Virus record (IMG/VR): IMGVR_UViG_3300034158_000041
Span: 1-59,999 of that record
Reading direction: 5' to 3' (one strand)
Source of the DNA: a virus
Taxonomy: Duplodnaviria; Caudoviricetes
DNA length: 59,999 nt
In this document: positions 3,985-59,184 of the stretch, in pieces
Numbering within the stretch: position 1 is the first letter of the stretch
Layout: each line of letters starts with the position of its first letter
Program-made: the position numbers and the translations under genes
Notes under the pieces: model-generated
The model's database searches: none
Seen by the model: the letters and a program-made list of their open reading frames with translations, nothing else
Told to the model about the DNA's origin: nothing

Positions 3985-4035
3985 CCTATTTATAAGTTTC
4001 GATACAAAATTTATAACCGAAATCTATTAATACCT
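3985..4035. promoter_or_regulatory. Divergent archaeal promoters (BRE-TATA ACCGAAATC-TATTAATA on +; TTATAAAT elements on -)
   Basis: AT-rich strand-switch region; + TATA about 24 nt before ATG 4056. Confidence 0.65.
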
Positions 4036-22873: not shown

Positions 22874-23006
22874 ATTTCCCCCTGTTCTAAGTACCTATTT
22901 TGAATTAAAGTCGCTTAAAATCGATTACACGAATTATAAAAGTAACAAGAAAATAAATAGCAGGGAGACCCTCGGGTCTTGGTAGACCGTCATTGGGGCT
23001 CTCTGT

Positions 23007-24467: not shown

Positions 24468-24533
24468 TTAAATACCTCACATATTGCAATATGTTCGCAT
24501 CTCCGGCATCGTCGCGACAATGCCATCACAGAA

Positions 24534-24548
24534 GATAAAGATAAATAG
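24534..24548 (+). promoter_or_regulatory. Putative BRE-TATA for the tRNA-like RNA pair
   Basis: GATAAAG-ATAAATAG about 22 nt before G24570. Confidence 0.5.
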
Positions 24549-24569
24549 AAGAAACGCCTATAATTTCAT

Positions 24570-24652
24570 GCTCTGATAGTGTAGTCCGTTCTAACACATC
24601 ATGAGGCGAAAGCCGTGGAGTGATAACATGGGTTAAAATCCCATTCAGAGAC
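24570..24652 (+). ncRNA. tRNA-like RNA with a kink-turn/GAAA hairpin in place of the anticodon loop
   Basis: Acceptor CTCTGA/TCAGAG, D stem GTGT/ACAC, T arm ATGGG-TTAAAAT-CCCAT; central ATCAT-GA-GGC-GAAA-GCC-GTG-GA-GTGAT. Confidence 0.75.
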
Positions 24653-24695
24653 ATGCCGCCAATTTCCTGAAGTACAAGGGAGAAAGGGCGGCAAA

Positions 24696-24822
24696 GAGAA
24701 TCGTAGTCGAATTGGTAAGACACCGGCCCGTCTGGGGCCGAGCCCGTAAACGGCAAAAGCCGGAGTATCCGAAAGGACTCTACGGTAGCTGTGTAGTGAT
24801 GGTTCGAGTCCATCCGATTCTC
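24696..24822 (+). ncRNA. tRNA-like RNA with an 8-bp acceptor and a giant branched extra arm
   Basis: GAGAATCG/CGATTCTC; TA-GTC-GAATTGGTAA-GAC D arm; GATGG-TTCGAGT-CCATC T arm; ~75-nt folded insert. Confidence 0.75.
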
Positions 24823-24862
24823 ATAAGAAATCGTTAAATATCAGAAGATTCTATAAGATATC

Positions 24863-25039
24863 ATGAAAAAGAATCTAATTTCGAAGCTTTTCGAAGCTTT
24901 CAAGTCTGGAGAGATCCTGAAAGATGGAGCAGAGTTCTATAAGATAACTGAATTCAATATAACACTGCATCCCGATTTTGTCCAGCAAAGACAGATTGTC
25001 GTAGCAATTGCGCAGACCAATGAGACGGGGGAGCTATGA
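24863..25039 (+). CDS. Small hypothetical protein (58 aa, not in track)
   Basis: TTAAATA box upstream; ATGA overlap with the next gene. Confidence 0.5.
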   Translation: MKKNLISKLFEAFKSGEILKDGAEFYKITEFNITLHPDFVQQRQIVVAIAQTNETGEL

Positions 25040-25521
25040 AAACCATCGACCTAACAGATCGAGATGTAAAAATCGAAATATCGCAAGACAGCGTGTCATT
25101 CAGTTCATGGAACAACACATACAAACCAGACCCCGCCTGGTGCTTACAGGATAGCGCCGGCCATATCCATAGATGGGACTTAGCAGCCAAGAAAGTGCAC
25201 ACCATCAAGACCGTTGTAGATGAGGTCTTCGAGCACTGGGATGACGGGGACTATTGGACCACCGAAGAGACCCACCAGGAGTGCGTCCGATGTGGTGAGC
25301 GCATCGAGCCGGGATATTTGGTTGATGTTCCCGCGGGGCAGATTGTGCTGGTTCCAACCTTAAAACGCTTATCGGGAAGCTATGCACTTGGAGAGAATGA
25401 TATATTCCCGGAAATGGGAGAACGGTATGCGTTCATAATTTACGGGGAAACATATGAAGCATACATAACCGAAATGTCGGCGTGCGCTCATGGGCCGATT
25501 ATGATATCTTTTGGAGCATGA
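25036..25521 (+). CDS. Hypothetical protein with a possible zinc site
   Basis: GHIHRW and CVRC; GGGGGAG SD. Confidence 0.6.
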   Translation: MKTIDLTDRDVKIEISQDSVSFSSWNNTYKPDPAWCLQDSAGHIHRWDLAAKKVHTIKTVVDEVFEHWDDGDYWTTEETHQECVRCGERIEPGYLVDVPAGQIVLVPTLKRLSGSYALGENDIFPEMGERYAFIIYGETYEAYITEMSACAHGPIMISFGA

Positions 25522-25625
25522 GTTATGAATTTCAGAGATGCTAAACTGACAAGAGATCTTGATAAGCTGGAAAGCCTGATTCGCAACCTATCAAAAGAGG
25601 AATGGAAAGAACTCTGCGATCGGTT

Positions 25626-25970
25626 CTAGCCAACGTGTTTTTTGATGTATTTGGGAAGCTTACTTATATTCGATTGTACCGTATCTCCGATAAAACCAGC
25701 GTGCCCCGTTGTATGATGCAACGATCGATCCATTTCCTGTTTGAATATATACGCCTTCGCTGCTCCTCCGCCCCCCACATAAATACACCGGTTTTTATCA
25801 TCCCTCTCATATCCCAGAGAGTTCCGCATAGTTCCGCCATTTACCGGAGCGACCGGGCAATTGATCTTTGCTTGGGGAAGCCAGACAACAAGGGCGAACT
25901 CTTCCAGGCCATCCATTCCAGCCTTGATGACCCGGTTCTTAAACGGCCCATCGTTCCAGGTAACACTCAT
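25626..25970 (-). CDS. HK97 gp10-like tail completion protein
   Basis: AKINCPV..GGTMRNS..AYIFKQE..H..GHAGFI. Confidence 0.7.
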   Translation of the reverse strand: MSVTWNDGPFKNRVIKAGMDGLEEFALVVWLPQAKINCPVAPVNGGTMRNSLGYERDDKNRCIYVGGGGAAKAYIFKQEMDRSLHHTTGHAGFIGDTVQSNISKLPKYIKKHVG

Positions 25971-28559: not shown

Positions 28560-29210
28560 TCAAGAGAATGGCAATTGTGCCAACTCAGAGGCAGTACCCC
28601 GGATTTCCGCATTCTGGCTAGGGATATAGTATCTGGTCCAATAATAAGCATAGTAGCTTACTTGGTCCCTAGGAGCGGCTGGATGGCCTCTGAGGGCAAG
28701 GTTCAGCAACCAAGGCCAAATGCCTCTCTGGATGCCAGCTATCAGCACAACCCAGGCTAACTCATTTTCGCCACAGGCTGACCAAGATATGACTTGCGCA
28801 CCCGGGACTTCATGGATTCCAGCTCCATAGCAACAGCCAAAGAAGAGGTCGCAATTCACGCCGGGCCGGAGCCCTCGCAGGATGGCATCTACCTCATAGT
28901 CCCACACCAGCCCTCCGGATTCCCAGTCAGAAGCGCACAAGCATTCTGATGTGCCGTCGGGTTCCGCGCTCGGAACTTTGCCACCATGCCCGAAGAAGCC
29001 GAAGCATATCGAATCTCCTGCATATGAGGTATTTACCAGGTCACGCAAGCCGTTTATGATCGTGGCCTTGGATGGATTCGATTGGCACTGAACCACCTGG
29101 AAGCCTCTCTGCAATAGGCTTGTCCTTGTGTCGTTCATATCATTGATATTATTTTTCATGGTATAGGGAGCCCGATAGGCGTCCACCGCTGCAAGAAATG
29201 CCCTTTTCAT
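28560..29210 (-). CDS. Metacaspase (peptidase C14)
   Basis: KRAFL..VD.Y; IND; GD...FFGHG (catalytic His); EPDGTSECL; FGCCYG (catalytic Cys); WSACGENE.A. Confidence 0.85.
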   Translation of the reverse strand: MKRAFLAAVDAYRAPYTMKNNINDMNDTRTSLLQRGFQVVQCQSNPSKATIINGLRDLVNTSYAGDSICFGFFGHGGKVPSAEPDGTSECLCASDWESGGLVWDYEVDAILRGLRPGVNCDLFFGCCYGAGIHEVPGAQVISWSACGENELAWVVLIAGIQRGIWPWLLNLALRGHPAAPRDQVSYYAYYWTRYYIPSQNAEIRGTASELAQLPFS

Positions 29211-30698: not shown

Positions 30699-31850
30699 CT
30701 AGCTGGAATTACCAGCCAATTCGTTTGGCGACGAATTGTCGCCCATTTCGATGGTTTTATTCAGGATGATCGGCTCTTCTATAGGATCCGTTTCATTGAT
30801 GGTCGGTTCTACCGCAAATACCGATTCATCAACTTCTGCCATTGTCTTCAGAGCGGGGGGATTGGTTATAGTAACCCTCAACGGAGCCTCCCAAATCTCT
30901 TCCGAGCACTGACCAAGTGAATCAACCGCAATGACCCGCACATCGAAGAATCCTGCGTTGTTCCAGCTATGAGAAGCCGTCACCACTGCACCGGAAGGAT
31001 AAAAGCCAGTGGTTTCTGTTGCGTCACCCCAGCAGAATATATACTGGATAGTATCTCCATCAGGATCGGTGGCACTTGTGGTGTAGCTATAAGTTACGCC
31101 TGCGATGCCCGAAGTTGGACCGACTGGAGTAGATGCCGTAGTGGGGGGATAATTTATTCTCGGACCCAACACGTTTACGACTCTGGCAACGGACCATCCA
31201 GAGGTTGCTCCATGTTCGTCTGTAGCCGTAGCACGCACGTTAAATGTCTTCTGGGTGTTGGGCGATACCGTCCATCTATGAGACGCGCTCGATTCTGTCC
31301 CAGAGGCCACCAGCGCGGTCGTGGTTGTGGTTCCGTCTCCCCAGTCGAAGGTGTACTTCACCCGGTCTCCATCAGGATCGATTGCATATACAGAGTAACT
31401 ATATGTGTTACCGGATTTGGCGGCTGTTGTGCCCCAAGGAGTATATGGGGCGTATGGTGCTTGATTTGTCGCGGCCTGATCTGAAATTGTCACCAATGTG
31501 CCTTTCTGTGAAAAGGTAGACACTGACCCAAAGCTATCTATTGCCTTGACGTACACGTTGTATGTCTTGGTTGTTCCAGTTACCGGCCATTTATGGGAAA
31601 CTGTCACGACCTGACCAGATGGGAAAAGGCCGGTGGTTGTCGTGGTGCGATCTCCCCAATAAAACACATACTTGACTTTATCTCCATTGGGATCGATTGA
31701 ACTGGTGGAATAGCTGTATGAAGTGCCTGATATGCCCACAGTCGGGCCACTTGGAAGAGAAGGAATTGAAGGGGGGCGATTTAACGCAGTGCATGTTGAC
31801 ATCATCGCGAGGATGACCAAAAAGATTAATATTTTTCTCATCTCGATCAC
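30699..31850 (-). CDS. Secreted protein with three PKD domains
   Basis: Signal peptide; 3x DP(N/D)GD..(K/Q)Y.F.WGD.T..SH.W. Confidence 0.9.
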   Translation of the reverse strand: MIEMRKILIFLVILAMMSTCTALNRPPSIPSLPSGPTVGISGTSYSYSTSSIDPNGDKVKYVFYWGDRTTTTTGLFPSGQVVTVSHKWPVTGTTKTYNVYVKAIDSFGSVSTFSQKGTLVTISDQAATNQAPYAPYTPWGTTAAKSGNTYSYSVYAIDPDGDRVKYTFDWGDGTTTTTALVASGTESSASHRWTVSPNTQKTFNVRATATDEHGATSGWSVARVVNVLGPRINYPPTTASTPVGPTSGIAGVTYSYTTSATDPDGDTIQYIFCWGDATETTGFYPSGAVVTASHSWNNAGFFDVRVIAVDSLGQCSEEIWEAPLRVTITNPPALKTMAEVDESVFAVEPTINETDPIEEPIILNKTIEMGDNSSPNELAGNSS

Positions 31851-32818
31851 CCGTAAAGCTTCCAGATGCCGGTCTTGTCACCATTTCCAAGTGTGCGCTT
31901 TTCGACGGTGTAGTAATGCATCACCTGTCTGGTGTCATACTTGAACTCAGGCTTGGTATAAAGATCTCCTAAGCCAAGCGTATGTCCCATCTCATGCAAT
32001 GCTACCGACTGGACATCAACGCCGATTGTAGAGCGATCGGTGCGCCACTTGTAATCTGTATTGAAGACCAGATCCGAATCCAGAGCCGTATTGTATCCAT
32101 CGACCTTTTTAAAGTTGTAATAGGTTCTGGCGTAAGCTAAACAGTATGCGTTGCCGAACGGGCTCCAACTGACGGTGTTTATTTTGTTATATTTTTCGGC
32201 AACCACATTAGGATTCAAAGTGACCAAGCCGCTATCTGCGAAAAGGTTCTGGTTTGTGGCATCATCCCATGAGTTGGCTGCATTAGATATGGCGCTCTGC
32301 ACCGCACTGGTGGTTATTCCCTCTGCCGCCATGTTTGCGTCATTCTTCAACACCCATTTGAGTTGAGGATCTTTTATATTCCATCTATAACCGAATAAGG
32401 TATAGGCTTCTGCCCTTCCACCATCTGAAGTAAATGCCGGACCTGTTATCAGGTTAGTAACCCGGCCATCCATCATGTGGAAATTGATAGACTGAAGACC
32501 TTCATCTGCATCAATCAGGATACCATTGACCTGCCCTTTCAGAGAGCTATCTGTGACTTCTATATCTGCATCCAGGTCGCCCTTTGCTGCAATCATCAAG
32601 CCATTGGCCTCAATGGAGGCCTCGCCAGTTCCTGCAATCTCCCTGGAGCCCGACATTTGGCCACCTGCCAGAGTTGTGCTACCTGTCAGGCCGGCCTCTG
32701 GACTGAGATCATAGGATTCTCGTATTTCATTACCTTGCCCGTCGCCCATGGAAATGGATATGGCCGAAGCGGCATTGATCATAGCTGCTAGGATAAGCAG
32801 CGACAGTATATTTTTCAT
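31847..32818 (-). CDS. Secreted matrixin (M10)-like zinc metalloprotease
   Basis: Signal peptide; DVQSVALHEMGHTLGLGD; QVM Met-turn; LGNGD..GI..LYG. Confidence 0.85.
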   Translation of the reverse strand: MKNILSLLILAAMINAASAISISMGDGQGNEIRESYDLSPEAGLTGSTTLAGGQMSGSREIAGTGEASIEANGLMIAAKGDLDADIEVTDSSLKGQVNGILIDADEGLQSINFHMMDGRVTNLITGPAFTSDGGRAEAYTLFGYRWNIKDPQLKWVLKNDANMAAEGITTSAVQSAISNAANSWDDATNQNLFADSGLVTLNPNVVAEKYNKINTVSWSPFGNAYCLAYARTYYNFKKVDGYNTALDSDLVFNTDYKWRTDRSTIGVDVQSVALHEMGHTLGLGDLYTKPEFKYDTRQVMHYYTVEKRTLGNGDKTGIWKLYG

Positions 32819-32842: not shown

Positions 32843-34273
32843 CTAAGGAGCCACATTATCGGGTGAATTGCCAGACATGCCGGAGAATACGAAGTTCGAC
32901 CAGTAGATAGCACCGCCCATCTCGCCAGCCACATTATTCGTGATGGTTCCGCCAGTTCTAATGATGGTATTCCAGGCATTCATGACGCCACCGCCCATCA
33001 TTGCAGCAGTATTATGGTCTATAGACCCGCCTAGAAGTTTGAGCGTGCCCTCGAACTCTCGATCAGGGGAAACGTCCATGAATATGCCACCTCCATTAAA
33101 GACCGTGGCATTATTGTGGTCTATGGAGCCGCTTATCAGGGTCACGTTGGCCTCATCACTGTAGATAGCGCCCCCACTGTTGGCATTGTTATAAGACAGC
33201 GTGCTGCCATCGATCACCAACATCGAACTGCGATCATGAAACACGGCGCCGCCGATTCCGGCAGTATTGTGTGTAATCAGCGTGCCATTGCAGTAGGTGG
33301 TTGCGAAGTTATCATCATAGATCGCGCCTCCATATATGGCTGTATTGTGATCTATAGAGCCCGCATTCAAATATGCGGTTCCAAGTGTCTCGTGGTAGTC
33401 CTGAGCATCATTGTAGATGCCGCCGCCCGAGCCCAGGTTATTGGTGACTGTGTTGTATGAAATGGACCCCCCATTCATGATAAACAAGCCCCAGGTATAG
33501 ATGCCGCCACCGTACCAGTAACCGGTATTGTGGGAAATCGAGCCGTTCATGGTAAAGCTAGAACCACCATCGGAATAGACGCCCGCGCCGCTCCGAGCAG
33601 TATTGTAGTCTATCTTGCCACCGATCTGGTTTACCTCACCCCAGTTATAGATGCCGCCACCACCATACGTGGCCGCATTATTGGATATGTTGGCATTGTC
33701 TAGGAGAACATCACCAGTCGCAGCGTTGCAAATTCCGGCCCCATTTGGTGCTGTATTTTCCGACAACTCTGTGTCAATCAAATCAAGATCGCCAGCGTTA
33801 TAAATAGCTCCGCCGTCGCCCTCGCTTGATACGGTATTCTCGGATAATAGGCAATTTTCAAATGTTGCGTCTCCTGCATTGAGAACTCCTCCCCCATAAG
33901 TAGCGTGATTATCAACTATGGAAACGTCCTCTGCGTCCAAATTGCCATTATTTCGAATGCCTGCACCAGACGGAGAGCTACCATTTCGAATGGCAAACCC
34001 GGATAGAACCAAGCTCTTGCCAGCATCTATCAAGATGCATCGGCCAGAAAGTGATCCATCCAGAATGGCGTCATCGCCATATATGGCTAGGTTTTTGTTT
34101 ATAGTGAGATGCTCGTAATATGTCCCCGGCGCAACCAGAATCGTATCTCCAGCAGAACTTGCCGTGATCGCGCTCTGAATCGTGGTGTATGTTTGTGTGG
34201 GTGACACATGCAGTTCCGTGCAGTCGACCACAGATATCATGGCCAGTAAAATAATAAATAGAAATGTCTTCAT
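32843..34273 (-). CDS. Secreted right-handed beta-helix (Pmp/pectin-lyase-like) surface protein
   Basis: Signal peptide; YTTIQSAI..GDTILVAPGTY; many N.A..GGAIY/GGGIY repeats. Confidence 0.85.
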   Translation of the reverse strand: MKTFLFIILLAMISVVDCTELHVSPTQTYTTIQSAITASSAGDTILVAPGTYYEHLTINKNLAIYGDDAILDGSLSGRCILIDAGKSLVLSGFAIRNGSSPSGAGIRNNGNLDAEDVSIVDNHATYGGGVLNAGDATFENCLLSENTVSSEGDGGAIYNAGDLDLIDTELSENTAPNGAGICNAATGDVLLDNANISNNAATYGGGGIYNWGEVNQIGGKIDYNTARSGAGVYSDGGSSFTMNGSISHNTGYWYGGGIYTWGLFIMNGGSISYNTVTNNLGSGGGIYNDAQDYHETLGTAYLNAGSIDHNTAIYGGAIYDDNFATTYCNGTLITHNTAGIGGAVFHDRSSMLVIDGSTLSYNNANSGGAIYSDEANVTLISGSIDHNNATVFNGGGIFMDVSPDREFEGTLKLLGGSIDHNTAAMMGGGVMNAWNTIIRTGGTITNNVAGEMGGAIYWSNFVFSGMSGNSPDNVAP

Positions 34274-34282
34274 AGTTTTCTC

Positions 34283-35485
34283 CTATGCCCTAGTCAAGGG
34301 CAAACTTCTGTATCTAGGGTTGGTAAGACCTTTGTCAAATTCATCGATTGTGACGCATTTGATTTTACGCTGAACGGCGTAGTCGATCAATGCTTGAAAA
34401 TCGGCTGTTACCCACGTTTCCGCGGCAGCCTCTTCTGCAAACATGTGGCCCATGAAGACTATGGTAGTTCCAGTCGTGATTGCGGTATCAATGGCTGCCT
34501 TGCAGGACGCAAGGGTCGTGCCTGTAGTTAATGCTTTAGTAACCGGGAAGTCATACGCAGAATATCGGAATGGATCAACCGATCCGACTCTGACAGACCT
34601 TGCGATGATGACTCCTGCAGCCACAGCAGCAGCATCGACTGTTGCATTGCGCTGTCCGCCTGGATGGGCCATATAATTGGCAGCCCTGGGCATTCCGTTG
34701 GCAATTAGATAATCACGACATGCCTCTAGGTTGGCCTGACACGCTGCCTGAGAAAGCTCAGTAAGATTGGCATGGTCATAAGCATGATTACTAATAGCCC
34801 ATCCATTTGCATATGCCTCTTGACACTGGGCAAGAGTCCAATACCCTTCAGTACCAAGCACAGTAGGAACGACAAAAACCGTGCCAACAATGCCCTTCGC
34901 ATCCATGTAGGCTTTGGCAACAGTATAAGATGTCGTCTTTGGGTCATCGAAGGTAAACAGGCACCTGGGTTCAACGGTTTGGTTGTAGTAAACAGCGCCA
35001 AATGTTATGGACGGCATTTTATCAGCCGCCCCACCAATGCGAAGGCGCGCGCGGATCATTGTATCGCTGGGGAGTCCACCGCCCGATGCGGTCATCGCGG
35101 AAGGCGCGATGGTAATTCTATTCCAGCCAGCATATATGATGAGCGGTCGCAGAACAGCGATCATCATTCTGGTCAACCCTGCATCAGCCGCCAACGCAAA
35201 ACTCATGTCGCTGATATCTGCGAGAGCAGAATGGAGGTAGACCCATATCGTAATGCTCTTGACACTGCTGAGATCAAGCGCCGAGATTGTCCGGGAATAA
35301 ACCGCACTCCCGGCCGGGGTCGTGGGGGTCATCCTTATGCCCTGCGTCCCAACCTTATAATTGGTGGTATCGGCCGCAAAAGTTCCTGCGTTGACGGCAG
35401 TCCAATCAGCCGTGTTGCCAAACGCCTCTAATAGAGTACCTTGATCGCGAATATTGTTTTGAGGCAACGTCGGTCTTGTCGTCAT
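34283..35485 (-). CDS. Polysaccharide deacetylase (NodB/CE4) with an N-terminal beta-sandwich
   Basis: FTFDD, SNHAYDH, AHPGG, FMGH motifs. Confidence 0.85.
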   Translation of the reverse strand: MTTRPTLPQNNIRDQGTLLEAFGNTADWTAVNAGTFAADTTNYKVGTQGIRMTPTTPAGSAVYSRTISALDLSSVKSITIWVYLHSALADISDMSFALAADAGLTRMMIAVLRPLIIYAGWNRITIAPSAMTASGGGLPSDTMIRARLRIGGAADKMPSITFGAVYYNQTVEPRCLFTFDDPKTTSYTVAKAYMDAKGIVGTVFVVPTVLGTEGYWTLAQCQEAYANGWAISNHAYDHANLTELSQAACQANLEACRDYLIANGMPRAANYMAHPGGQRNATVDAAAVAAGVIIARSVRVGSVDPFRYSAYDFPVTKALTTGTTLASCKAAIDTAITTGTTIVFMGHMFAEEAAAETWVTADFQALIDYAVQRKIKCVTIDEFDKGLTNPRYRSLPLTRA

Positions 35486-40535: not shown

Positions 40536-41894
40536 TCAGAACAGCCCCCCGCCCTGCGTCGTGGCTTCCTTGGCTATCTGCTTCTGATCTTCTTCGGATT
40601 GCTCATCGGACAACCTGTAGATCCTCTTGGCAGCAGCCTTGGTTGAAGTGATCTTATTCATCACTGCCATCTGCTCGATCTGCATCTGCTGATATTCATC
40701 ATTGGGCAGGCCGTCGTGCCAGTCAATCCCGATCTCCTGCTCTTCCAGTTGGATGCCGTCAAGTTGGGCGGCCAGCCAGATGATCTTCTTGATAGCTGGA
40801 TCGATGTTCAGCCGTAAGCGCTCGACGCGCTTCAAGGGCGCCATCATGCGAAGCCTGAGAGATGTTCCAGACTCTGCTCCTCCAGTCATGCTTTGGCCGA
40901 AAGCCTGCGGACAGGTCTCTGAGATGGCATATAGCTGGCTCATCAAGAATTCTATTTCCTGGAAAGATGCGGTTAGTTGGCCGTCCCAGGTGACATAAAA
41001 AGGCGGGGCTTGCCCCTCTGCCATGGGGAAAACTTTCAGGTTACTATCATAATGGCCCTCGCCCGTGTTGGGGTCTTTGCCTATCGCGTCCTCTGGCACG
41101 CCCATAACCGGTTCGCTGTGAGCATCCAGTATCCTGCCAAGCCTTGTCAGCCTGGTCTCCAGCCTTCTTATGATAGGGTCCAGGGGGGTGTAATCATCGC
41201 AGCCCCATTGGTTTGTGGTGGTGGTCAGGTTGAGAAGAGGAACTACCAGGAAGTCATCTATCTCAGTCTTGTCGATTTGGACATCTTTCTCATCCGAAGC
41301 TATCTTGCCCTGAATAATGTCATACTTGCGGGTTTCAACTTCGCCCCGCCTATGGATCTCTACATGGAGATATGATTGCAGAACATGATTTACGAAATCC
41401 TCCGAGGTCCAAGCCAGAACATGTTCTATAATCTGCCCGCCAGGTGCCTGGATGGGGAACCATTTGGATGGCGCTATGGCCTGAATGTGAACCCTGTCAT
41501 CTTCATCTTTGTAGATCTTGACGGGCCCTACACCGAACCTAGACATGTCCAGAAGGCCCTTATAAGCCTCCGGCCACAAGCCAGTATCACGCCGGAGTTC
41601 TTTGACAGCATCAGAATTGGCGTCATCTACCTTGACATCTGGGGTCTCCCCTATGAGCAGATCCGGCCAGAGGCAGGACAGCCTGCGATGCCAGTTTAGG
41701 ATCAGAATAATCTTCTGGTGTTCTGCCGCACTATTGTGGAAAAGCCTGAGCAGACCAGTATAGACTTTGGTATGATTGCCTTCGAATAGGTCTTGGTTTT
41801 GGGAATAAAGGGTCAATCTGGATTGTTCAGATGCCGGAGGCCACGGCGCGCCCTTATAAAGTATAGATTCCGTATCGTAGATAATTTTAATCAC
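40536..41894 (-). CDS. Portal protein (SPP1 gp6-like)
   Basis: LNWHRR...LIGE.P; GCDDY; YVTWDGQL; AESGTSLRLRM; IDWHDGLP.D. Confidence 0.9.
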   Translation of the reverse strand: MIKIIYDTESILYKGAPWPPASEQSRLTLYSQNQDLFEGNHTKVYTGLLRLFHNSAAEHQKIILILNWHRRLSCLWPDLLIGETPDVKVDDANSDAVKELRRDTGLWPEAYKGLLDMSRFGVGPVKIYKDEDDRVHIQAIAPSKWFPIQAPGGQIIEHVLAWTSEDFVNHVLQSYLHVEIHRRGEVETRKYDIIQGKIASDEKDVQIDKTEIDDFLVVPLLNLTTTTNQWGCDDYTPLDPIIRRLETRLTRLGRILDAHSEPVMGVPEDAIGKDPNTGEGHYDSNLKVFPMAEGQAPPFYVTWDGQLTASFQEIEFLMSQLYAISETCPQAFGQSMTGGAESGTSLRLRMMAPLKRVERLRLNIDPAIKKIIWLAAQLDGIQLEEQEIGIDWHDGLPNDEYQQMQIEQMAVMNKITSTKAAAKRIYRLSDEQSEEDQKQIAKEATTQGGGLF

Positions 41895-42727
41895 CCTATG
41901 CTGTCAAATCGATCTTTTTTTCTCTGCAACCACGGTGCATTGCCATCATATAGCCAGTTTCTAATTCGCAACGCATTATTTCTTCCGCTATATCGCAATT
42001 CGGATATTTTACCTTTCGATCTGATTTTTATAGGGTTTAATCCCAAATCGGATACTAACACGCTCATGACATCATTTAAGAATGGAACGGTACCAACCAG
42101 AGCAAACGTTGGTTTCCCGCTTTTATCAAAATATATTGATCCATCGCCGTCGAAATACCCACGGATGTAACTATTTATGAGACGACGCGGAACCTGTTTG
42201 CAGAATTCGAGCGTCAACGACTTTTGGGGGGTTATTCCCAAGCGTTTAAGTGATGATATTAAGGTCAGATTGTCGATAACAACACGAGCAAAATTCAGAT
42301 TCTTCGATTTTCCGCCCATAGAATAATAAATAGATTTATTGCTTTCAACGTCTTCGAGAAAGCCGTTTAAGATGATAGAATCTTTCGCGCTAAGACGGAT
42401 GGCCAATCGGTTCTTTTTTCCACTGTTTATACAGCCGTCCGCTGAAATGAACCCCAGCCAGTACGCTTTTTTCTCGTTGTCTATAACATCGAAAAAATTT
42501 TCGTTTAATGTGTACCGTTGGTGTGCGTGACTATCATCTCTCCTTTTTACTCTCATCCGATCTAATGCGTAATAAACCGCCGGCGTGGTTACATCATATT
42601 GCCGCGCGATCTCTGGAGCATCAACTCCATTTTTATAAAGTTCAGCGCATCCAAAATACCATTCTTTCGGTATGTATTTTGTAGGAGACACGATCTTAAT
42701 CGAGATTATTCTATTTTTGTTTTCCAT
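41891..42727 (-). mobile_element. Free-standing LAGLIDADG homing endonuclease with an N-terminal HTH
   Basis: KAYWLGFISADG and YIRGYFDGDG; AT-rich; own TATA box (TATATATA ~42750-42757). Confidence 0.88.
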
Positions 42728-44507: not shown

Positions 44508-44607
44508 ATGGAATCAATCCTATAAAGTAGAAAATCGCCGGTTAGCCCAGCATGTCAATTTAGTCAGTTTCCCGACAATTCAAGTTTCCTGTCGTAACAA
44601 GGTTAAA

Positions 44608-44681
44608 AGCCATCTGCATGATTCGAACATGCGACCTGCAGTTTACCGAACTGCCACTCTAACCAACTGAGCTAAGATGGC
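44608..44681 (-). tRNA. tRNA-Thr(GGT), no encoded CCA, U32-C33 loop
   Basis: GCCATCT/AGATGGC acceptor, GCTC/GAGT D stem, GCAGT-TCGGTAA-ACTGC, GCATG-TTCGAAT-CATGC, U73. Confidence 0.88.
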
Positions 44682-44853
44682 GATAAGTAGGATAGGCAGC
44701 GGTTAGACCGCCGCACGATTGAAGTTTCCTACGAACGAGGAAGATCGGCCTGGAAAGGAGAGATAGGAAACCAGGCCGCTTTGCTAGATAATCAGTGAAA
44801 GCCGATGATCGGTCCACGCCCGATACACGCAGGCCATGATACCCCCGTATCAC
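44682..44853 (-). ncRNA. Putative structured ncRNA or leader of six consecutive hairpins upstream of the tRNA
   Basis: TATAAATA at 44881-44874; stems GTGATAC/GTATCAT, ATCGG/CCGAT, ATCGG/CTGAT, CGGCCTGG/CCAGGCCG, TTCCT/AGGAA, GCGGCGGT/ACCGCTGC. Confidence 0.55.
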
Positions 44854-45907: not shown

Positions 45908-46405
45908 CTACCTATCGTCTGGAAAATTCAAGCAACTAAATGCTTTGAAAAGTTTCCTAGCCTCCGCATCGTATGCCAATGCCGCATCTATCTCGGTATC
46001 GAAGTATCCTATATGTATCCGAGACCCATTCATTTTTATTCTGGCCCGCCATCTCTTGTCTCGGGCTTCCCAGTCAACCCCTTTATATTTGCTGCTAGTG
46101 ATACGATTCTGTTTCCTGCTGTTCTGGCAATTTTCTCGACACGTCGCGATTCTAAGATTTTCTCTCCGATTATCCAAACCATCGTGGTTTATATGATCTA
46201 TCTGTTCGTCGTCGCGAAGTTTTCTATCCAGCATCCGTTCCATAATCACGCGATGCATCAACACGCCAGCCACACGCGTTGACATCCGCATTGCATATGC
46301 ACGCGTGTTTACGTGACTGCGACACGCGCACCATTTCTCTTCGCTTAGTTCAACGTCTTCCCGACTTATTGTCACCATTTTGCCACCCGCAAGACGAATT
46401 TTCAT
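45908..46405 (-). CDS. HNH endonuclease with an AP2 domain
   Basis: MHR..IDHINHDGLDNRRENLR..EN..N; SKYKGV.W..RWRARI..GYFDTEIDAALAYD. Confidence 0.92.
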   Translation of the reverse strand: MKIRLAGGKMVTISREDVELSEEKWCACRSHVNTRAYAMRMSTRVAGVLMHRVIMERMLDRKLRDDEQIDHINHDGLDNRRENLRIATCRENCQNSRKQNRITSSKYKGVDWEARDKRWRARIKMNGSRIHIGYFDTEIDAALAYDAEARKLFKAFSCLNFPDDR

Positions 46406-58458: not shown

Positions 58459-59184
58459 ATGCAATTCAAAGTCGTAATTTCCCCAACCACAATGAAAGAC
58501 ATAATCAATGCCATCAAAGATGTAGCCGAAGAAGTCAGAATCCAAGTCTCGGAAACCGGCCTGAAAATCCAGGCCGTTGACCCGGCAAATGTCTGCATGG
58601 TATTCTTGGATGCACCCCAGGATGCATTCGAGTACTACAAAACCGATGCCGGAGACCTAGCACTCGATATGATCAGGCTGGACCAATTCACCAACGGATC
58701 TGACAGCATCTCCATGGAATTGGACCCCGAAACCCACAAGATGGCCGTGGACCATGGCCGGTCCAAGTTCTCCATGTCTATGATAGACCCAACTGCAATC
58801 AAGGGCGCCCCAAGAGTCCCCAACCTGGATATGCCATGTAGCATTGTGATATCAGGCGCTGATGTCTATGATGCTATCCAATCGGCTATCAAGGTCTCTG
58901 ATCATGCCATCCTCGAACAGGACGAAGAGAACTTTGTGCTGGAGGCCAAAGGAGACATTGACTCCGTGAGAACTGCTTTCCAGTTGTCGGAACTGACCGG
59001 TATTAGGCAAGGCATGTCTAGGGCCGTGTTCTCACTCGATTACCTGGCGGATATCGCAAAGGTGGCTAGAAAGGTATCGGCGGTCCAGATCGAAACCGGG
59101 ATAGATTATCCCACTGTGATATCCTTCGGGATGGGAAAAATTTCTGTTCGTTATATGCTCGCCCCGCGCATCGAACAGGACTGA
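58459..59184 (+). CDS. pcn: DNA sliding clamp (archaeal PCNA)
   Basis: GLKIQAVDPANVCMV; AFEYY; VFSLDYL; GIDYP; YMLAPRIE. Confidence 0.95.
   Translation: MQFKVVISPTTMKDIINAIKDVAEEVRIQVSETGLKIQAVDPANVCMVFLDAPQDAFEYYKTDAGDLALDMIRLDQFTNGSDSISMELDPETHKMAVDHGRSKFSMSMIDPTAIKGAPRVPNLDMPCSIVISGADVYDAIQSAIKVSDHAILEQDEENFVLEAKGDIDSVRTAFQLSELTGIRQGMSRAVFSLDYLADIAKVARKVSAVQIETGIDYPTVISFGMGKISVRYMLAPRIEQD

Follow-up and report, generated by a model that had tools for sequence, protein, structure and literature searches.

In the complete, 59,999-bp genome of a Caudoviricetes virus assembled from peat (IMG/VR record IMGVR_UViG_3300034158_000041), which has direct terminal repeats and which we analysed at its full length (hereafter the window), positions 24696-24822 of the + strand hold a 127-nt tRNA-shaped RNA, RNA 2, whose sequence and fold are the subject of this work. 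It lies beside a neighbouring tRNA-like RNA, RNA 1 (24570-24653, + strand). Homology indicates that RNA 2 is tRNA-derived, and from its sequence it looks to have descended from a glutamine-type (CUG) tRNA; its structure is far beyond chance. Our preferred interpretation, offered tentatively and with somewhat less than even confidence, is that RNA 2 is an expressed, processed, non-decoding tRNA mimic rebuilt from a tRNA of this glutamine (CUG) type. This interpretation draws on the score against the tRNA family model, the glutamine-type descent, an intact scaffold, a closed anticodon loop, a structured insert and an enriched promoter-like motif, ATAAATAG. It draws also on the adjacency of two different aberrant tRNA-shaped genes that are altered only in the anticodon/variable region.

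The Rfam tRNA model, RF00005, which has a gathering score of 29 bits, matched RNA 2 at 44.7 bits (E 6.2e-09, little sequence having been scanned; 24697-24822) and RNA 1 at 33.6 bits (E 5.1e-06; 24570-24652). Both RNAs thus exceed the gathering score of a known Rfam family, a match that the preliminary description of this DNA had treated as incompatible with its proposal. A scan of the whole window at gathering thresholds returned no matches and also missed a genuine tRNA-Thr that scores 64 bits alone, so negative whole-window Rfam results may be false. In E-value mode, a scan of 401 bases missed RF00005 and returned only a partial tRNA-Sec at 16.9 bits; evidently, the scan filters drop matches with long insertions. 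The RF00005 alignment of RNA 2 takes in seven acceptor pairs and leaves G24696-C24822 as an eighth pair of the G-1:C73 type. The 5′ acceptor strand is GAGAATCG (RNA GAGAAUCG; 24696-24703, + strand, 8 nt), of which 24697-24703 are Rfam positions 1-7, so that G24696 is G-1. Through 24815-24822 it pairs with the 3′ strand, CGATTCTC (RNA CGAUUCUC) plus A (24815-24823, + strand). C24822 is either a discriminator C73 paired to G-1 or a member of an eighth pair with A24823 as the discriminator, and CCA is not encoded at the 3′ end.

The body of RNA 2 points to its likely parent. When the genomes of 185,579 species were searched for its exact D arm and T loop, spaced as in ordinary tRNAs, 13 genes matched, all in bacterial records; 12 of the 13 are tRNA-Gln(CUG) and the remaining one, from Saccharibacteria, is a tRNA-Ser(UGA). 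The search pattern consisted of these two elements, and the likeness in the anticodon arm is independent of it. In two of those genomes (G001 and G005), tRNA-Gln(UUG) genes read GAC-A-CCGGC-CUUUGGA-GCCGG; the RNA 2 counterpart is GAC-A-CCGGC-C[CG]UCUGG[G]-GCCG, and the stretch GACACCGGCC is common to RNA 2 and tRNA-Gln(UUG). From the CUG isoacceptor the loop of RNA 2 retains U33-CUG-G37; A38 is replaced by G, and position 32 is followed by two extra bases, which allow the anticodon loop to zip shut. The 5-nt variable loop, AAGCU in the tRNA-Gln relatives, has become AGC, a 45-nt insert, AGCU and GUGUAGU. RNA 2 thus shares with canonical tRNA-Gln(CUG/UUG) a D arm and T loop identical to those of 12 genes, a CCGGC-type anticodon stem and UCUGG in the loop, but it is 127 nt long rather than ~75, its loop is two nucleotides longer and closed, a junction and a 7-nt linker stand in for the variable loop, and it has an eighth acceptor pair. 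Its acceptor sequence is unrelated to that of the tRNA-Gln genes, and its discriminator is C or A, without their U1 and G73.

The helices of RNA 2 were present as the preliminary description had them: the perfect 8-bp acceptor, a D loop with GG, the TTCGAGT T loop, an anticodon-like hairpin with G at 33 and no canonical anticodon loop, and an arm of ~50 nt in which AGC/GCT and CCGTA/TACGG close two hairpins, the last found both in the sequence and in the minimum free energy (MFE) fold. A UA dinucleotide separates the acceptor strand from the D stem, and the D arm, GTCGAATTGGTAAGAC (24706-24721, + strand), has a 3-bp stem, GTC/GAC, and a 10-nt loop, GAATTGGTAA (RNA GAAUUGGUAA). The anticodon-like hairpin, CGGCC-CGTCTGG-GGCCG (24724-24740, + strand), is folded by RNAfold into 6 bp and a 5-nt loop, GUCUG (CGGCCC-GUCUG-GGGCCG). 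In the position of the variable loop stands a branched extra arm of 50 nt (24741-24790, + strand), with a base of AGC/GCU plus CCGUA/UACGG with a UA bulge that forms a three-way junction, from which the hairpins CGGC-AAAA-GCCG and GAG-UA-UCC-GAAA-GGA-CUC emerge. The 7-nt linker GUGUAGU (24791-24797, + strand) leads from there to the T arm, GATGG-TTCGAGT-CCATC (24798-24814, + strand). All 40 designated pairs, in nine helices, are Watson-Crick, with zero G-U pairs and zero mismatches, and by eye the elbow nucleotides U8, A14, G18G19, U54U55C56 and A58 and the pair G53-C61 can be recognized.

The five-way fold has a free energy of -50.4 kcal/mol and the MFE is -50.9 kcal/mol, 0.5 kcal/mol apart. 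The MFE structure retains all helices of the insert and exchanges the D and T stems for a D-loop/T-loop duplex. Against dinucleotide shuffles (n = 200), the whole of RNA 2 has a z-score of -4.26, with 0 of 200 shuffles folding equally well. The extra arm alone has the fold given above as its MFE (-16.5 kcal/mol; z = -2.61; 2/200 shuffles), and the anticodon-like hairpin alone gives z = -3.26 (1/200 shuffles). Predicted pair probabilities are 0.97-0.996 in the anticodon-like stem and 0.56-0.92 in the extra arm; for the two added pairs that close the loop they are 0.995-0.996. T-arm-like motifs with a G+C-containing stem number three in the 60-kb genome, namely RNA 2, RNA 1 and the tRNA-Thr; together with the shuffle statistics, this rarity places the structure of RNA 2 far beyond chance. 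That every helix pairs had been taken as a sign of selection. The pairing itself held throughout, but as an argument for selection it is suggestive only, there being no homologue from which covariation could be read. A second copy of the insert is absent from the window.

Several known classes of RNA were considered for RNA 2. Set against a decoding anticodon arm (5-bp stem, 7-nt loop, U33, purine 37), RNA 2 has either a 5-nt loop, GUCUG, on 6 bp or a 7-nt loop with G33, and ARAGORN in its default run did not call it a tRNA. The preliminary description had offered the geometry of bacterial tRNA-Sec or of tRNA-His; the 8/5 arrangement and the G-1:C73 pair stood, and neither identity did. The tRNA-His hallmark of G-1 paired with C73 is present, whereas a GUG anticodon is not. 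Bacterial tRNA-Sec (RF01852) was rejected, as its 16.9 bits compare with a gathering score of 47 and cover the 3′ part only, the D stem is wrong and there is no UCA in the loop. tmRNA was rejected as well, ARAGORN in tmRNA mode at an 80% threshold having found nothing and Rfam having given no tmRNA match, and no Rfam match to Y RNA families was obtained for RNA 2. The geometry of allo-tRNAs was excluded because RNA 2 is 8/5 (13 bp), not 8/4 or 9/3 (12 bp). A K-turn in RNA 2 was discarded since the sole candidate would need the T stem broken.

The neighbour had been described as a second aberrant tRNA-shaped RNA, and its 33.6-bit RF00005 match and an MFE structure that is a cloverleaf (z = -3.15) bear this out. 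RNA 1 has its own oddities: a G1.A72 mismatch, and a D loop without GG that faces the T loop UUAAAAU (TTAAAAT), by eye a possible U19-A56 swap. Its anticodon loop is replaced by a 17-nt loop in AUCAU-GA-GGC-GAAA-GCC-GUG-GA-GUGAU, in which GGC-GAAA-GCC forms a hairpin, and ARAGORN at a 90% threshold calls RNA 1 as His(GUG) with a 10-nt insert, GUG lying in the enlarged loop. In a custom script the layout at 24598-24624 matches the K-turn consensus at every defined position, yet 65 such layouts occur on the + strand of the window, or 1.08/kb. If the host is archaeal, the K-turn-like hairpin suggests binding by L7Ae, as a lead only.

RNA 1 and RNA 2 come first in a + strand island of ~1.15 kb (24480-25630), followed by three co-oriented open reading frames (ORFs) downstream of RNA 2 that encode 58 aa (24863-25039), 161 aa (25036-25521) and 34 aa (25525-25629); the island is flanked by minus-strand genes of the head module. 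The octamer ATAAATAG, which is promoter-like (TATA-box-like), lies at 24541-24548 on the + strand and ends 22 nt before RNA 1, a gap equal to the spacing of an archaeal TATA box. It occurs 11 times in the window (at 3986, 4886, 22953, 24541, 27530, 33800, 34254, 42171, 42326, 44873 and 53819) against 1.77 expected, a six-fold enrichment that 0 of 100 shuffles reached. Copies are usually preceded by purines and lie upstream of several genes, including the tRNA-Thr unit, and the octamer is probably a promoter (TATA/BRE-like) element of the virus. A perfect TATAAT was also seen by eye at 24559-24564, 5 nt before RNA 1. To judge from these motifs, RNA 1 and RNA 2 appear to have their own start signal. 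A sigma-70 scan found no promoter for the RNAs, and there is no terminator after RNA 2, so the downstream ORFs may be co-transcribed. Antisense to both RNAs runs a 95-aa ATG ORF (24526-24813, - strand). On the basis of its translation alone we regard it as spurious, but a gene caller would probably report it, and both RNAs would then be masked. Elsewhere, at 22953 (+), a ATAAATAG copy points towards a G+C-rich hairpin that lies in a gap between genes of the minus strand, and an antisense or small RNA may be transcribed from it. The genuine tRNA-Thr(GGU), at 44608-44681 (-), comes after a 17-codon ORF that is itself downstream of a ATAAATAG motif, and the surrounding region (44590-44745, -) carries imperfect direct repeats of ~20 nt, AGGAAACTTCAATCGTGCGG before the tRNA and AGGAAACTTGAATTGTCGGG after it.

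The host is probably archaeal, a methanogen. This assignment rests on an archaeal-type PCNA, the viruses that match it, the best match of the primase-helicase and the use of AGA and AGG. The PCNA sliding clamp, at 58459-59184 (+), has Pfam PCNA_N and PCNA_C domains and scores 224.6 bits against NCBIfam NF002222 (cut-off 207). Its best solved relatives are 1rwz (1e-43) and 3hi8 (2e-41), which we take to be the Archaeoglobus and Haloferax clamps. All 21 records of the phage collection that matched the clamp are archaeal viruses, 20 of them haloarchaeal by the first word of the organism name and one with Methanomicrobiales as host, and the primase-helicase is best matched by a virus whose host belongs to the Methanosarcinales (1e-73). 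Among arginine codons, AGA and AGG together account for 51% and AGA alone for 26%; CAG makes up 62% of glutamine codons. The assignment is not certain, given that the capsid and terminase are nearest to those of phages of Firmicutes and Actinobacteria.

Sequence relatives of RNA 2 were sought widely. Pattern searches of viral contigs, in which the arm was also searched, and distant blastn against phage records yielded no homologue; among plasmids, RNA 2 gave one 33-nt chance match (E 0.8). A pattern search of viral contigs with RNA 1 gave 0 matches, megablast of 10 kb against phage records returned nothing, and blastn of both RNAs against 138 other loci recovered only tRNA D-arm and T-arm words. 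The region is identical, with zero variants, in contigs of two of four DNA sequencing runs, so the population offers no covariation either. The preliminary description had proposed a viral system of tRNA scaffolds with cargo domains, which are hypothetical, and with the downstream ORFs as possible partners; the related loci did not bear out the partnership. By ARAGORN, neither RNA is carried at any of seven loci of related viruses (two found through a 150-aa protein and five through the head-morphogenesis protein), and relatives of the 161-aa ORF lack a tRNA-like RNA upstream at both of the two loci examined. In the closest related contig (L004; head-morphogenesis protein 73% identical), a 225-nt spacer with a small membrane ORF lies at that place, and in another related locus (L010) the leader is not notably structured (z -1.43). 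The 161-aa ORF itself has three relatives among 5.8 billion proteins, reaches Pfam DUF7129 only below threshold (16.4 bits against a cut-off of 30, E 0.0079), and has an all-beta AF2 model (pLDDT 79.9) with no PDB fold match at E <= 0.001. Among 73 ORFs of the window scanned with Pfam, PHROGs or NCBIfam, no ligase, L7Ae, Ro, aminoacyl-tRNA synthetase, CCA enzyme or integrase was found.

RNA 2 has kept what tRNA-handling enzymes read, namely the acceptor helix, the D and T arms and the elbow nucleotides. Its three-way junction (45-50 nt) stands in place of the 5-nt variable loop, the sole site at which an added domain can stick out and leave the L shape intact. If RNA 2 is a non-decoding mimic, RNA 1 and RNA 2 would be transcribed from the ATAAATAG motif ahead of the three small ORFs, and host RNase P, 3′ trimming and CCA-adding enzymes would release RNA 2 as a stable small RNA. 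With its G-1:C73-type end, RNA 2 may bind HisRS, or even be charged by it, and still stay out of translation. The working surface would be formed by the extra arm in RNA 2 and by the K-turn-like hairpin in RNA 1; the arm would hold a host or viral protein, or make RNA 2 a decoy for a tRNA-directed enzyme. Several points weigh against this interpretation. Expression, ends and CCA addition of RNA 2 are all inferred, and no binding partner was identified. Having no homologue, RNA 2 offers no covariation and hence no proof of selection, and since related viruses do without it, the RNA is dispensable and probably recent. A bacterial-looking body in what appears to be an archaeal host would suit a stray acquired gene equally well, and zero G-U pairs are also expected from a young palindromic DNA insertion that was never selected as RNA. 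The K-turn reading of RNA 1, finally, is weak, such layouts arising at 1.08/kb by chance.

The account that we consider possible but less probable than a mimic is a decaying tRNA gene, in which an acquired, possibly bacterial-type, glutamine tRNA lost its anticodon loop by a 2-nt insertion and took a short palindromic insertion into its variable loop, leaving an RNA that, if it is made, is inert. RNA 2 is an orphan, absent from all related loci and without homologues, and its anticodon loop is unusable as it stands. By eye, the inverted repeat CCGTA/TACGG and an AGC on either side delimit the arm, and the arm has zero G-U pairs; both features fit a recent insertion at the DNA level. Archaeal viruses have also been reported to carry tRNA pseudogenes (PMC13532342). 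What decay leaves unexplained is that nine helices stand without a mismatch and the elbow nucleotides are intact, that a second, unrelated aberrant tRNA-shaped gene adjoins, that an enriched promoter-like motif lies directly upstream, and that the insert has no other copy in the genome; the identity of the sequence in two samples points the same way, though it carries little weight because the interval is so short. That RNA 2 is a working decoder whose variable arm has expanded strikes us as improbable. The loop would open on the ribosome to read CAG (CUG, 9-nt loop) or AGA (UCU, 7-nt loop, G33), and charging through G-1:C73 (with His) or the long arm (with Ser) would make RNA 2 a missense tRNA. 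In favour of this account, RNA 2 has an intact scaffold whose score exceeds the tRNA threshold, and CAG and AGA account for 62% of glutamine and 26% of arginine codons in this genome. Natural tRNAs of unusual geometry and with long arms are active in translation (PMC5389517), and a tRNA of the virus HFTV1 with a 5-nt insertion in its anticodon region is expressed and co-sediments with ribosomes (bioRxiv 10.64898/2026.09.13.751334). Yet the 7-nt reading has no U33, the loop pairs are predicted closed at 0.995-0.996, the acceptor-plus-T helix has 13 bp rather than 12, and the GlnRS-type acceptor features of the tRNA-Gln relatives (U1, G73) are absent.

Because the host is probably archaeal, tRNA introns needed serious testing, and an archaeal-type intron in RNA 2 proved unlikely, indeed a good deal less probable than decay. 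As a precursor, RNA 2 would lose ~51 nt to give tRNA-Arg(ACG), or be cut within the loop of the Rfam alignment to give another tRNA, through an archaeal endonuclease and ligase; introns are common in archaeal tRNAs. ARAGORN, with introns allowed, does call Arg(ACG) with a 51-nt intron at 32/33, but besides that intron position the call requires an anticodon stem containing a C.A mismatch as well as a G.U pair. The Rfam alignment pairs CCGGC with a second GCCGG (24759-24763), 31 nt downstream, but this conformer is 5.2 kcal/mol worse, has a pair probability of 0.002, and would have bulges of 3 and 5 nt as well as four additional bases left unpaired. A custom scan for bulge-helix-bulge layouts (3-nt bulges flanking a 4-bp helix at exon-intron borders) found 12 loose ones in both RNAs, none at the ARAGORN borders, and the sole layout that falls inside the insert is flanked by 2 bp and could form only if the strongest helices melted. 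No excision gives a clean cloverleaf and no bulge-helix-bulge fits, so that removal of the insert as an intron to leave a standard tRNA, which the preliminary description had recognized as an outcome that would undo its proposal, is unlikely. At 50 nt, the insert is also too short for self-splicing of the group I intron kind. We give hardly any credence to a DNA-level element, be it a chance structure or an attachment site that imitates a tRNA gene of the host. Among archaeal viruses, tRNA-like attP sites are reported for HF2 (PMC8707807). However, the scan of 73 window ORFs against Pfam, PHROGs or NCBIfam found no integrase, direct terminal repeats are present in the genome, and an attP would copy the host tRNA exactly, without a 50-nt arm; chance structure is excluded by the tRNA-model score and the shuffles.

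Some known RNAs resemble a non-decoding mimic of this kind in part. YrlA Y RNA and viral tRNA-like structures are tRNA mimics read by tRNA enzymes, not by the ribosome. RNA 2 differs from YrlA in ending at the acceptor stem rather than on the anticodon side, and no Ro-type protein is found among the 73 ORFs scanned. Phage T4 makes two adjacent small stable RNAs, species 1 and 2 (rnaC and rnaD; 139 and 119 nt), beside its tRNA genes, and rnaC has a tRNA-type T arm. Unlike RNA 2 they fall short of the tRNA model (best tRNA-Sec, 17.5 bits); to our knowledge, their function is still unknown. Bacterial tRNA-Sec shares with RNA 2 the 8 + 5 bp of acceptor and T stems, a long extra arm and a 6-bp anticodon stem, but its D stem has 6 bp and its D loop 4 nt, against 3 bp and 10 nt in RNA 2, and its anticodon is UCA, which RNA 2 lacks. 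Along with the T4 RNAs and the HFTV1 tRNA, the nearest published precedents include the irregular tRNAs and allo-tRNA-like polycistrons of peat and forest soil, some of which have G-1, are charged by HisRS and are unused in translation (Mukai et al. 2017, PMC5389517). The likeness extends to adjacent irregular genes, peat, G-1 in some, extra loops and possible five-stem junctions (see also the review PMC7609411). In a comparison that leaves their supplementary figures aside, those tRNAs are 8/4 or 9/3 (12 bp) and ascribed to acidobacteria, whereas RNA 2 is 8/5 (13 bp), comes from a probable archaeal virus and has a far larger, branched arm. The vtRNA-Thr of HFTV1 (Haloferax tailed virus 1; bioRxiv 10.64898/2026.09.13.751334) is likewise a tRNA gene of an archaeal tailed virus with an interrupted anticodon region, its 5-nt insertion there being accompanied by two expressed RNA species. 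Removal of that 5-nt insert restores a normal loop, whereas in RNA 2 no excision produces a clean cloverleaf and the large insert sits in the variable loop.

Over-long tRNA-shaped genes are frequent in viral contigs. A search for one D-loop word and the T loop 55-85 nt apart, a distance beyond that of normal tRNAs including class II, retrieved at least 116 stretches with at least 119 matches of 100-131 nt (L024-L139). Among the matches listed, 100 close at least six of seven acceptor pairs and 83 close all seven, and they form 53 sequence clusters. When 14 of the listed loci were run against Rfam, 6 had tRNA matches 121-126 nt long at 36-44 bits. In only five of the 119 matches listed is the D arm followed by a hairpin of the ordinary kind, with 5 bp, a 7-nt loop and U as the second loop nucleotide. 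The inserts are heterogeneous among the matches listed, lying in the anticodon loop in some and in the variable region in others, and some of these matches are plainly intron-bearing tRNA-Tyr with the insert at 37/38; none of those listed is a sequence relative of RNA 2. In the openly accessible article texts that we searched, neither a viral tRNA whose variable arm is branched nor an over-long class was described. Three other viral tRNAs (L048 3037-3110, L075 1841-1916(-) and L109 8215-8288) have a class-II-type D arm, a normal anticodon arm with GUU (Asn), a variable region of 29-31 nt, discriminator G and an encoded CCA; by these features they may have serine identity with an asparagine anticodon.

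Other parts of the genome also yielded observations. A free-standing LAGLIDADG homing-endonuclease gene (41891-42727, -) lies between the large terminase and portal genes, and an HNH-AP2 endonuclease is found at 45908-46405. Genes at 28560-29210 (-), 31847-32818 (-), 30699-31850 (-), 32843-34273 (-) and 34283-35485 (-) encode a protein with a caspase-like Peptidase_C14 domain and, in a run within the virion module, putative surface or enzymatic proteins with a matrixin-type metalloprotease, PKD domains, Chlam_PMP repeats and polysaccharide deacetylase.

The two RNAs expose a practical gap, in that ARAGORN at its default settings and Rfam scans of 401 or 59,999 bases missed both of them. If RNA 2 is only a decaying gene, it is ordinary. 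One wider idea, speculative and in our estimate rather unlikely, is that viruses of methanogens and many others use the tRNA fold as a carrier. Its acceptor, D and T core would recruit the processing and stabilising enzymes of the host, and the work would fall to a foreign RNA module grafted at the variable or anticodon position, here the three-way junction and the K-turn-like hairpin, of which the latter could hold archaeal L7Ae. RNA 1 and RNA 2 would then represent, for the first time among archaeal viruses, a broad class not yet described. If RNA 2 is made and stable, nature would have produced an equivalent of the engineered 'tRNA scaffold', and the viruses of methanogens, whose tools for host takeover are almost unknown, would have yielded a rare candidate for a non-coding RNA.

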